Positions 15,409 through 16,845 of a stretch of DNA of 64,000 nt are shown here, piece after piece. The stretch's first letter is position 1. The number at the start of each line of letters is the position of its first letter. The translations under genes were made by a program, and so were the position numbers. The notes under the pieces were generated by a model. It did not search any database. It worked only from the letters and a program-made list of their open reading frames with translations, and was not told the origin of the DNA. Source of the DNA: Escherichia coli (GTDB taxonomy: Bacteria > Pseudomonadota > Gammaproteobacteria > Enterobacterales > Enterobacteriaceae); assembly GCF_003790525.1 (NCBI RefSeq), contig NZ_CP033635.1, one strand, 5' to 3'.

Positions 15409-16845
15409 TCAGCGTTTGTAACCCCCGCCCAACGCACCAGTGAGTTGAATGGAGGCATCCAGCCACTGCCCTTGCAATAACAGGCCATTGGCCCGCTCAC
15501 GCAGCGCCGGGATCCTGGCTTCGCTGACGCGGGAACCGGCAATGATACCCGCGTTAAAGCGGGCCTGCGCAAGACCTACCACACGTAAGGCATCGCGCTC
15601 AATTTGCGCCTGATGCTGGTTTTTCTCCGCCAGTGTCTGAACCTGACTGGCTGCCCGCGCCACGTCATTCACCGCTTCAACCACCGCTTTGTTGTAGCTG
15701 GCGATAGACAAGTTGCTTTCGGCTTTTGCGATATCGAGATTGGCGTTAAGACGACCACTATCGAAAATGGGTAGCGTCAGGCCTGCCGTAACGCCCATTT
15801 GCTGCGCGGAATGACGGAACAGATCGCTTAAGTGCAACGCATCCTGTTGCAGAAAGGCCATCAGGTTGATGTCAGGATAAAATGCCGCTTTTGCCGCATC
15901 AATAGTGCTTAACGATGACTCAACGTACCAGTGCGCCGCCTGCAAATCTGCCCGCCGGGCCAGTAAGGAGTACCCGAGTTCATCAGGAAGCTGACTTGCC
16001 ACTTTCGGCAACGCGACCGGTTTAAGCTTCAATGACTTTGTCTGGTGGTTGGTGAGCGCACTTAACCGTGCCTCAATAATTTTCATTTTCCCCGCGACAT
16101 CGTTGAGCTGCTGCCGGGTTTTGCTGGCATTAATATCGGTTTCCACACCTTCAACTGAAGAAGTAATCCCGTTCTGATATAGCTGGCGATCGGTCACGAT
16201 AAGGGTGTTCTGCTCTTTTTCGATTTGCTGCAAGACCGTGTTTAACGCCGCCTGGGTTTGCCACTCCCAGTACAGGCGGGCTACGCTGCCAGCCAGCAAT
16301 TGGCGGGTTTGCTCGCGTTCCGCCACCCGTGCTTTAACCGTACCCAGGCGAGCAGTTACCTCCGCCCGATTCTTTCCCCAGATATCGAGATGCCAGCCCG
16401 CCGTTAAGCCAAAAGTACCGTTGGTGTACCACGGACCGGTCGTACCTGCGGCCGGATCGTTCAAAGCAAACGGCCCCATTAACCCTTCTGCCGACATTTT
16501 TTGCCGCTCCATATCCGCAGAAAAGTCGAGCTGCGGACCATCCTGAGTGGCAACTGCCTTCGCCTGGGCTTCAGCCAGCTGAATGCGCTGTTCAGCCACC
16601 TGCATATCCGGTGCGTTCTGTAGTGCATTGTTAATTAATGAAGTGAGTTGATTATCGTGATACTCCAGCCACCATTGGCTGTCTGGCCAACCATTTTTCA
16701 GCGCCGTGGGTAATGCGGTGTCAACTTGTGCCGCGGGTGTTTGCTGGCTTAACTCCTGGCGGGTTTCATGCATAGGCGCACACCCGGCCAGCATCAGTAA
16801 CAGCGGAAAACAGGCGATGGCTGGATAAAAAGAATCACGATTCAT
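15409..16845 (-). CDS. mdtQ: Outer-membrane efflux lipoprotein MdtQ (OMF family), intact
   Basis: ORF 15409..16935; start MNRDSFYPAIACFPLLLMLAGC (lipobox) gives 478 aa, no frameshift. Confidence 0.88.
   Translation of the reverse strand: MNRDSFYPAIACFPLLLMLAGCAPMHETRQELSQQTPAAQVDTALPTALKNGWPDSQWWLEYHDNQLTSLINNALQNAPDMQVAEQRIQLAEAQAKAVATQDGPQLDFSADMERQKMSAEGLMGPFALNDPAAGTTGPWYTNGTFGLTAGWHLDIWGKNRAEVTARLGTVKARVAEREQTRQLLAGSVARLYWEWQTQAALNTVLQQIEKEQNTLIVTDRQLYQNGITSSVEGVETDINASKTRQQLNDVAGKMKIIEARLSALTNHQTKSLKLKPVALPKVASQLPDELGYSLLARRADLQAAHWYVESSLSTIDAAKAAFYPDINLMAFLQQDALHLSDLFRHSAQQMGVTAGLTLPIFDSGRLNANLDIAKAESNLSIASYNKAVVEAVNDVARAASQVQTLAEKNQHQAQIERDALRVVGLAQARFNAGIIAGSRVSEARIPALRERANGLLLQGQWLDASIQLTGALGGGYKR

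Follow-up and report, generated by a model that had tools for sequence, protein, structure and literature searches.

The window analysed here, a stretch of 64,000 nucleotides of Escherichia coli DNA (NCBI RefSeq assembly GCF_003790525.1, contig NZ_CP033635.1), carries on its minus strand, at 15409..16845, the gene mdtQ (formerly yohG), whose 1437 nt comprise 478 codons followed by TGA, with no internal stop. The ATG lies at 16845 and the TGA at 15409-15411; mechanical extension of the frame reaches an upstream TTG at 16935 (508 aa), but we prefer the ATG because RefSeq uses the same one and because the protein that starts there aligns over residues 1-478 with all 478 positions of the MdtQ model. 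The identification of the gene draws on ORF translation, NCBIfam, TIGRFAM, Pfam and RefSeq (WP_001078163.1), and its ends equal those of the RefSeq coding sequence of strain SMS-3-5 (911930..913366). Over 15300..17000 the window is 100% identical to SMS-3-5 (NC_010498.1), where the mdtQ product is likewise WP_001078163.1. Chance would not plausibly produce so long an ORF with homology along its whole length (E = 0). The original prediction, which described an uninterrupted 478-aa ORF at these coordinates, holds exactly, and needs only the addition of the strand, which it did not give.

Immediately downstream, separated from mdtQ by 52 nt and on the same strand, lies yohF (14595..15356, minus), which encodes an SDR-family oxidoreductase with Pfam adh_short and adh_short_C2 matches. 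A consensus scan found no terminator-like site between the two genes, and yohF may be co-transcribed with mdtQ; it is not an obligate partner, and the idea of an obligate functional pair is weakened by Citrobacter, which has no yohF beside mdtQ. On the other side, the divergent neighbour is yohP (17069..17152, plus), a 27-aa small membrane protein (Pfam PF25659, E = 1.8e-13; also RefSeq). The intergenic region between mdtQ and yohP (16846..17068, no strand assigned) is the presumed mdtQ promoter region, and the sequence from 16846 to 17380 is 98.9% identical over 535 nt to that upstream of mdtQ in K-12. The consensus scan found no promoter within 16846..17068, and its promoter and terminator matches were overall fewer than in shuffled sequence, at or below expectation, so that the scan is uninformative; direct reading of the upstream sequence found no clear Shine-Dalgarno sequence before the ATG; a review notes that the mdtQ promoter lacks experimental confirmation (PMC11762307). 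An Rfam scan of 12000..21000 returned nothing at mdtQ. The same scan placed a Peptidase-S11 motif (RF03039) upstream of pbpG, at 12971..13051 on the minus strand (72.8 bits against a gathering score of 34.8), where this known cis-regulatory candidate is expected.

Gene order around mdtQ is kept in Salmonella, where it reads dusC - yohP - mdtQ - yohF - yohD - yohC - pbpG - dld, and the window has yohP, yohF, yohD, yohC, pbpG and dld in the same order as K-12 and Salmonella; only the dusC side is replaced, at an inversion breakpoint beyond yohP. E. albertii, Salmonella and Citrobacter have proteins named MdtQ of 478-479 aa, with 93%, 82% and 81% identity respectively, and no more distant orthologue appeared among the 120 matches listed. 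A synteny search for an ancestral partner found no adaptor or inner-membrane pump adjoining mdtQ in E. coli, Salmonella or Citrobacter; since no genus examined has an adjoining pump, we take the orphan arrangement to be ancestral to the group.

Family assignment and predicted lipidation of MdtQ

The protein matches the NCBIfam equivalog model for MdtQ (NF008524) with 1023.1 bits against a cutoff of 650, residues 1-478 aligning with model positions 1-478 of 478, and the TIGR01845 model for NodT-family outer membrane subunits with 274 bits against a cutoff of 210.05 (residues 16-475 on model positions 4-460 of 460). Pfam finds OEP (PF02321) in two stretches, as tandem repeats, with 106 bits against a cutoff of 22. 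The equivalog score and the position of the locus place the protein in the MdtQ orthologue group, and the NodT score, the two OEP repeats and a lipobox cysteine place it among NodT-type outer membrane factors. The second-best specific model is that of MdtP, whose score of 356 bits falls below the MdtP cutoff of 597, and we therefore reject the assignment of this gene as an MdtP orthologue.

The N-terminus of MdtQ reads MNRDSFYPAIACFPLLLMLAGCAPM, and its first 22 codons (16780..16845, minus) have the form of a lipoprotein signal peptide ending in the lipobox L-A-G-C. A PROSITE PS51257-type pattern matches CFPLLLMLAGC at residues 12-22 (LLMLAG followed by Cys22), with Arg3 in the n-region, within the first seven residues, and Ala at position +2; the lipobox that had been proposed near the N-terminus is thus present. 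G21, C22, A23 and P24 are invariant across the orthologues of E. albertii, Salmonella and Citrobacter, as are long stretches of the mature protein. Cys22 is accordingly the predicted lipidated first residue of mature MdtQ. Under the standard Lol-avoidance rule, a lipoprotein with Ala at +2 is sorted to the outer membrane, and this destination is predicted for MdtQ.

The solved structure that matches best in sequence is that of Vibrio cholerae VceC (1yc9), with E = 1.1e-39 over residues 51-477, followed by OprM, SilC, CusC, CmeC, MtrE, OprN and OprJ (1e-18 to 1e-23). A TolC-like fold is predicted from this sequence homology and from a published model; AlphaFold2, run on a shallow alignment of 10 orthologues with 80-98% identity, yielded no usable model (mean pLDDT 35).

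The K-12 lesion and the intact allele

In K-12 MG1655, mdtQ (b2139, formerly yohG/yohH) is annotated as a pseudogene of 1436 nt. Pairwise and multiple alignments locate the difference to a run of five A residues on the minus strand (16694..16698; T5 on the plus strand), which spans gene nt 148-152 in codons 50-51, Lys-Asn. K-12 has A4 where the window has A5, so that its frame shifts after Lys50 and yields a 69-aa product; the gene in the window, having kept A5 and no frameshift, is not a pseudogene of the K-12 type. The original prediction had called the K-12 gene a pseudogene and had staked its case on the K-12 gene not being intact and of equal length, and the annotation, the one-base deletion and the alignment agree with it. 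It is nearly certain that the K-12 pseudogene is no sequencing or annotation artefact hiding a gene like that of the window strain, as the 1436-nt allele recurs in independently sequenced derivatives (MG1655 lines, BW25113, DH5alpha, DH1, C600, J53, NCM3722 and others) and an exact 60-mer of the K-12 allele matches 355 genomes.

Apart from this one indel, the window and K-12 genes differ by 35 substitutions (97.5% nucleotide identity). When the missing A is restored, the K-12 gene becomes full-length, and 6 of its 478 residues differ from the protein encoded here (E31A, L106I, V174A, L215I, V217A and H267N). The substitutions comprise 29 synonymous and 6 non-synonymous changes, the latter conservative, giving dS of 0.091, dN of 0.0055 and dN/dS of 0.06. 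This ratio indicates that purifying selection has acted on mdtQ during most of the period since the two lineages diverged, and that the K-12 frameshift is recent. As the allele is intact and under such selection, the description of this mdtQ as potentially functional is a fair one.

How common the intact allele is was assessed by presence, length and allele. Of 5426 complete E. coli genomes, 5420 carry the gene, in every case on the chromosome. For length, we drew an evenly spaced sample of 60 matches, one of which was the SMS-3-5 gene, and counted the other 59: 54 were exactly 1437 nt, four were 1436 nt and one was truncated, a comparison that is blind to nonsense mutations and so gives an upper estimate of the intact fraction. 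All four 1436-nt genes in the sample belong to K-12 derivatives (strain 4A, NEB5-alpha, BW25113 and TUM22760). Exact-match probes of 60-61 nt around the lesion found the A5 61-mer in 4587 genomes, and the carriers of the K-12 60-mer, 60 of 60 among the matches listed, were laboratory K-12 lines (MG1655 derivatives, C600, J53, DH5alpha, DH1, NCM3722 and others). Lesions of other kinds lie elsewhere in the gene: in STEC276, which is flagged as frameshifted, one base is missing from a C-run near nt 411; in LR-27 an extra base in the terminal G-run alters the C-terminal residues and adds 8 codons to the ORF; in STEC379 864 nt are missing from the 5' end, next to an IS1. In MB46 an IS1 lies upstream of an intact mdtQ. 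As all four differ from one another and from the K-12 deletion, the A-run can be rejected as a recurrent hotspot.

These observations also bear on the possibility that the A5 run is a mutational switch resembling phase variation, with the intact state in this strain as one of its phases. The K-12 lesion is indeed a one-base loss within a homopolymer, but a run of only five A residues is too short to slip efficiently, A4 occurs among the 60 matches listed only in K-12 laboratory derivatives, against the thousands of genomes with the exact A5 probe, and the other lesions examined lie in the C-run, in the G-run near the 3' end and in the IS1-linked 5' deletion. We consider a switch of this kind extremely improbable. 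Intact mdtQ is instead the norm of the species and the K-12 frameshift the exception, with other lesions sporadic and at different sites. Independent truncations of mdtQ have been described in some isolates of Salmonella Typhi and Paratyphi A (PMC9241588). Together with the lesions in K-12, STEC276 and STEC379, they are consistent with mdtQ being dispensable in some settings or niches.

The inference of a non-K-12 lineage was also correct: mdtQ is 100% identical to that of SMS-3-5, and identity across 17-23 kb is 99.3-99.4%. The intact gene by itself says just that the strain is not K-12, and marks no special lineage. Over 17.7 kb the window and SMS-3-5 are 99.4% identical; they differ by one gap and by 95 mismatches, almost all of which lie in 7305..10570, on the osmF/bglX side (~3% divergence), and the rest is nearly identical. 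This segment looks like a recombination tract, or like a sign that the strain is not SMS-3-5 but a relative of it. Over 23 kb, no complete genome in the collection exceeds 99.3% identity, a value reached by KFu014, MINF_1A, SMS-3-5, LS45 and others, and the window is best described as belonging to an SMS-3-5-like lineage.

The inversion junction and its IS110-family element

The locus and its flanks on the yohF and yohP sides are the same as in K-12. Beyond yohP the two differ: K-12 has dusC, whereas the window has an IS110-family element and then lysO, a replacement caused by a large inversion. Collinearity with K-12 ends ~535 nt upstream of the mdtQ start, inside the TRIP1c repeat; there follow the 1384-bp element, the rest of a TRIP1 repeat, and lysO-hcp-hcr-poxB, genes that K-12 has at 0.91 Mb. 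The element occupies 17381..18764, with its transposase at 17654..18679 on the minus strand, and it sits within the TRIP1 repeat, the two halves of which flank it at ~17208..17380 and 18765..18860 (strand not given). In SMS-3-5 the reciprocal junction reads aqpZ - IS110 - dusC, and its element is 99% identical and points the other way on the chromosome; the aqpZ - IS - dusC junction is also present in MRY15-131. The mdtQ-side junction is common to 85 complete genomes, and the inversion leaves the mdtQ coding sequence and its immediate upstream region untouched.

The junction is that of the published TRIP1a/TRIP1c inversion of SMS-3-5 (PMC10888264). In its passages on this rearrangement, that report credits the TRIP1 repeats and does not mention IS copies (PMC10888264). 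The two junctions of the SMS-3-5 type share ~1.66 kb, and the IS110-family copies offer a longer substrate for recombination than the TRIP1 repeats. Within the inverted segment of SMS-3-5, outside the window, lies an island of ~41 kb (2261374..2302908 of that genome) that adjoins a tRNA-Ser gene and has a tyrosine integrase gene at its end; it encodes an Ag43-type autotransporter and a CbtA/YeeU toxin-antitoxin pair, and also contains O-antigen-like glycosyltransferase and ABC-export genes as well as many IS fragments.

The IS110-family element has one to four copies in each of the 179 E. coli genomes, among 5426, that carry it. At a third locus, asmA-yegH (O157:H16 98-3133 and FDAARGOS_497; 2501..3884 of the extracted loci), it again occupies the corresponding position within a TRIP1-like repeat, here a diverged one, a distribution that fits sequence-specific targeting of TRIP1-like repeats by the element. 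Some copies carry the RefSeq label 'IS110 family RNA-guided transposase', and the 273-bp non-coding end of the copy in the window (17381..17653, downstream of the transposase) could encode a putative guide (bridge) RNA; the Rfam scan of 12000..21000 gave no match there.

Proposed function and comparison with known efflux channels

Our findings make it highly probable that mdtQ in this strain is an ordinary intact allele of a core Enterobacteriaceae gene, encoding an outer-membrane-factor lipoprotein of the NodT/OMF family. The status of the gene, the K-12 lesion and the conservation of the gene in the core genome are all already in databases and the literature. An intact mdtQ alone matters little; the gene is an ordinary, correctly annotated core gene for which K-12 is the outlier. 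In the mechanism that we propose, the MdtQ precursor would be exported and lipidated at Cys22, and signal peptidase II would remove the signal peptide, after which the Lol pathway would sort the protein, given its Ala at +2, to the outer membrane. There it would assemble into a trimeric channel of the TolC type and engage a periplasmic adaptor and an inner-membrane transporter whose genes lie elsewhere on the chromosome. The partners would most plausibly be an adaptor of the EmrA/MdtN type and a pump of the MFS or ArAE type, a guess based on MdtP and VceC being the closest relatives of MdtQ. K-12 lost the gene through the recent one-base deletion in the A5 run, whereas the window strain, like nearly all E. 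coli, did not.

A different view of the intact gene is that it is a silent or decaying relic, either unexpressed or lacking a working partner, so that the strain gains no functional channel. Several observations lend themselves to this view: the gene is an orphan with no adjoining adaptor or pump, no clear promoter or ribosome-binding site was found upstream of it, it has been inactivated repeatedly and independently in E. coli and also in Salmonella Typhi (PMC9241588), and its function has not been elucidated and is still unassigned after decades, according to a review (PMC11762307). A dN/dS of 0.06 over ~9% synonymous divergence nevertheless points to sustained purifying selection on the protein, whose length and signal peptide are conserved as far as Salmonella and Citrobacter at ~81% identity, and the near-universal presence of the gene in complete E. 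coli genomes likewise argues against a relic. Orphan status, moreover, is no argument against function. TolC, the main channel of E. coli, is also encoded apart from its pumps. On balance, we regard decay to a relic as very unlikely, and an intact core gene remains our preferred reading.

A bolder proposal is that MdtQ serves as a working alternative exit duct, one largely missed by K-12-based efflux research because the K-12 copy is frameshifted. We consider this proposal unlikely. If it is true, MdtQ in strains with the intact allele, such as this SMS-3-5-like lineage, would couple to a pump encoded elsewhere and add measurably to the export of drugs or metabolites, at least when TolC is limiting. 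More immediately, the lesion is a caution for experimenters, as K-12 is the wrong background for studies of MdtQ. Published work on the phenotype of mdtQ loss was reportedly done in K-12; if so, the parent strain was already frameshifted, and the phenotype would be hard to assign to the loss of full-length MdtQ. Finding the partner and substrates of MdtQ requires either a natural strain whose mdtQ is intact or a K-12 strain in which the missing A has been restored.

VceC, OprM, CusC, CmeC, MtrE and TolC, to which MdtQ is homologous over residues 51-477, are trimeric alpha/beta-barrel exit ducts of tripartite efflux pumps. Identified partner pumps and substrates, and experimental structures, set VceC and the other solved members of the family apart from MdtQ. 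Within E. coli, the closest paralogue by model score, over nearly the full length, is MdtP (YjcP/SdsP), encoded in the mdtNOP operon and, like MdtQ, a NodT-family lipoprotein; that operon also encodes an adaptor and a pump, whereas mdtQ has no such genes beside it (PMC11762307). The MdtQ proteins of other E. coli (e.g. Q8X659 of O157:H7), Salmonella and Citrobacter share the length, the lipobox and the orphan context at 81-98% identity, and that of SMS-3-5 (WP_001078163.1) is encoded by a nucleotide-identical gene and is hence the same protein as the one described here.
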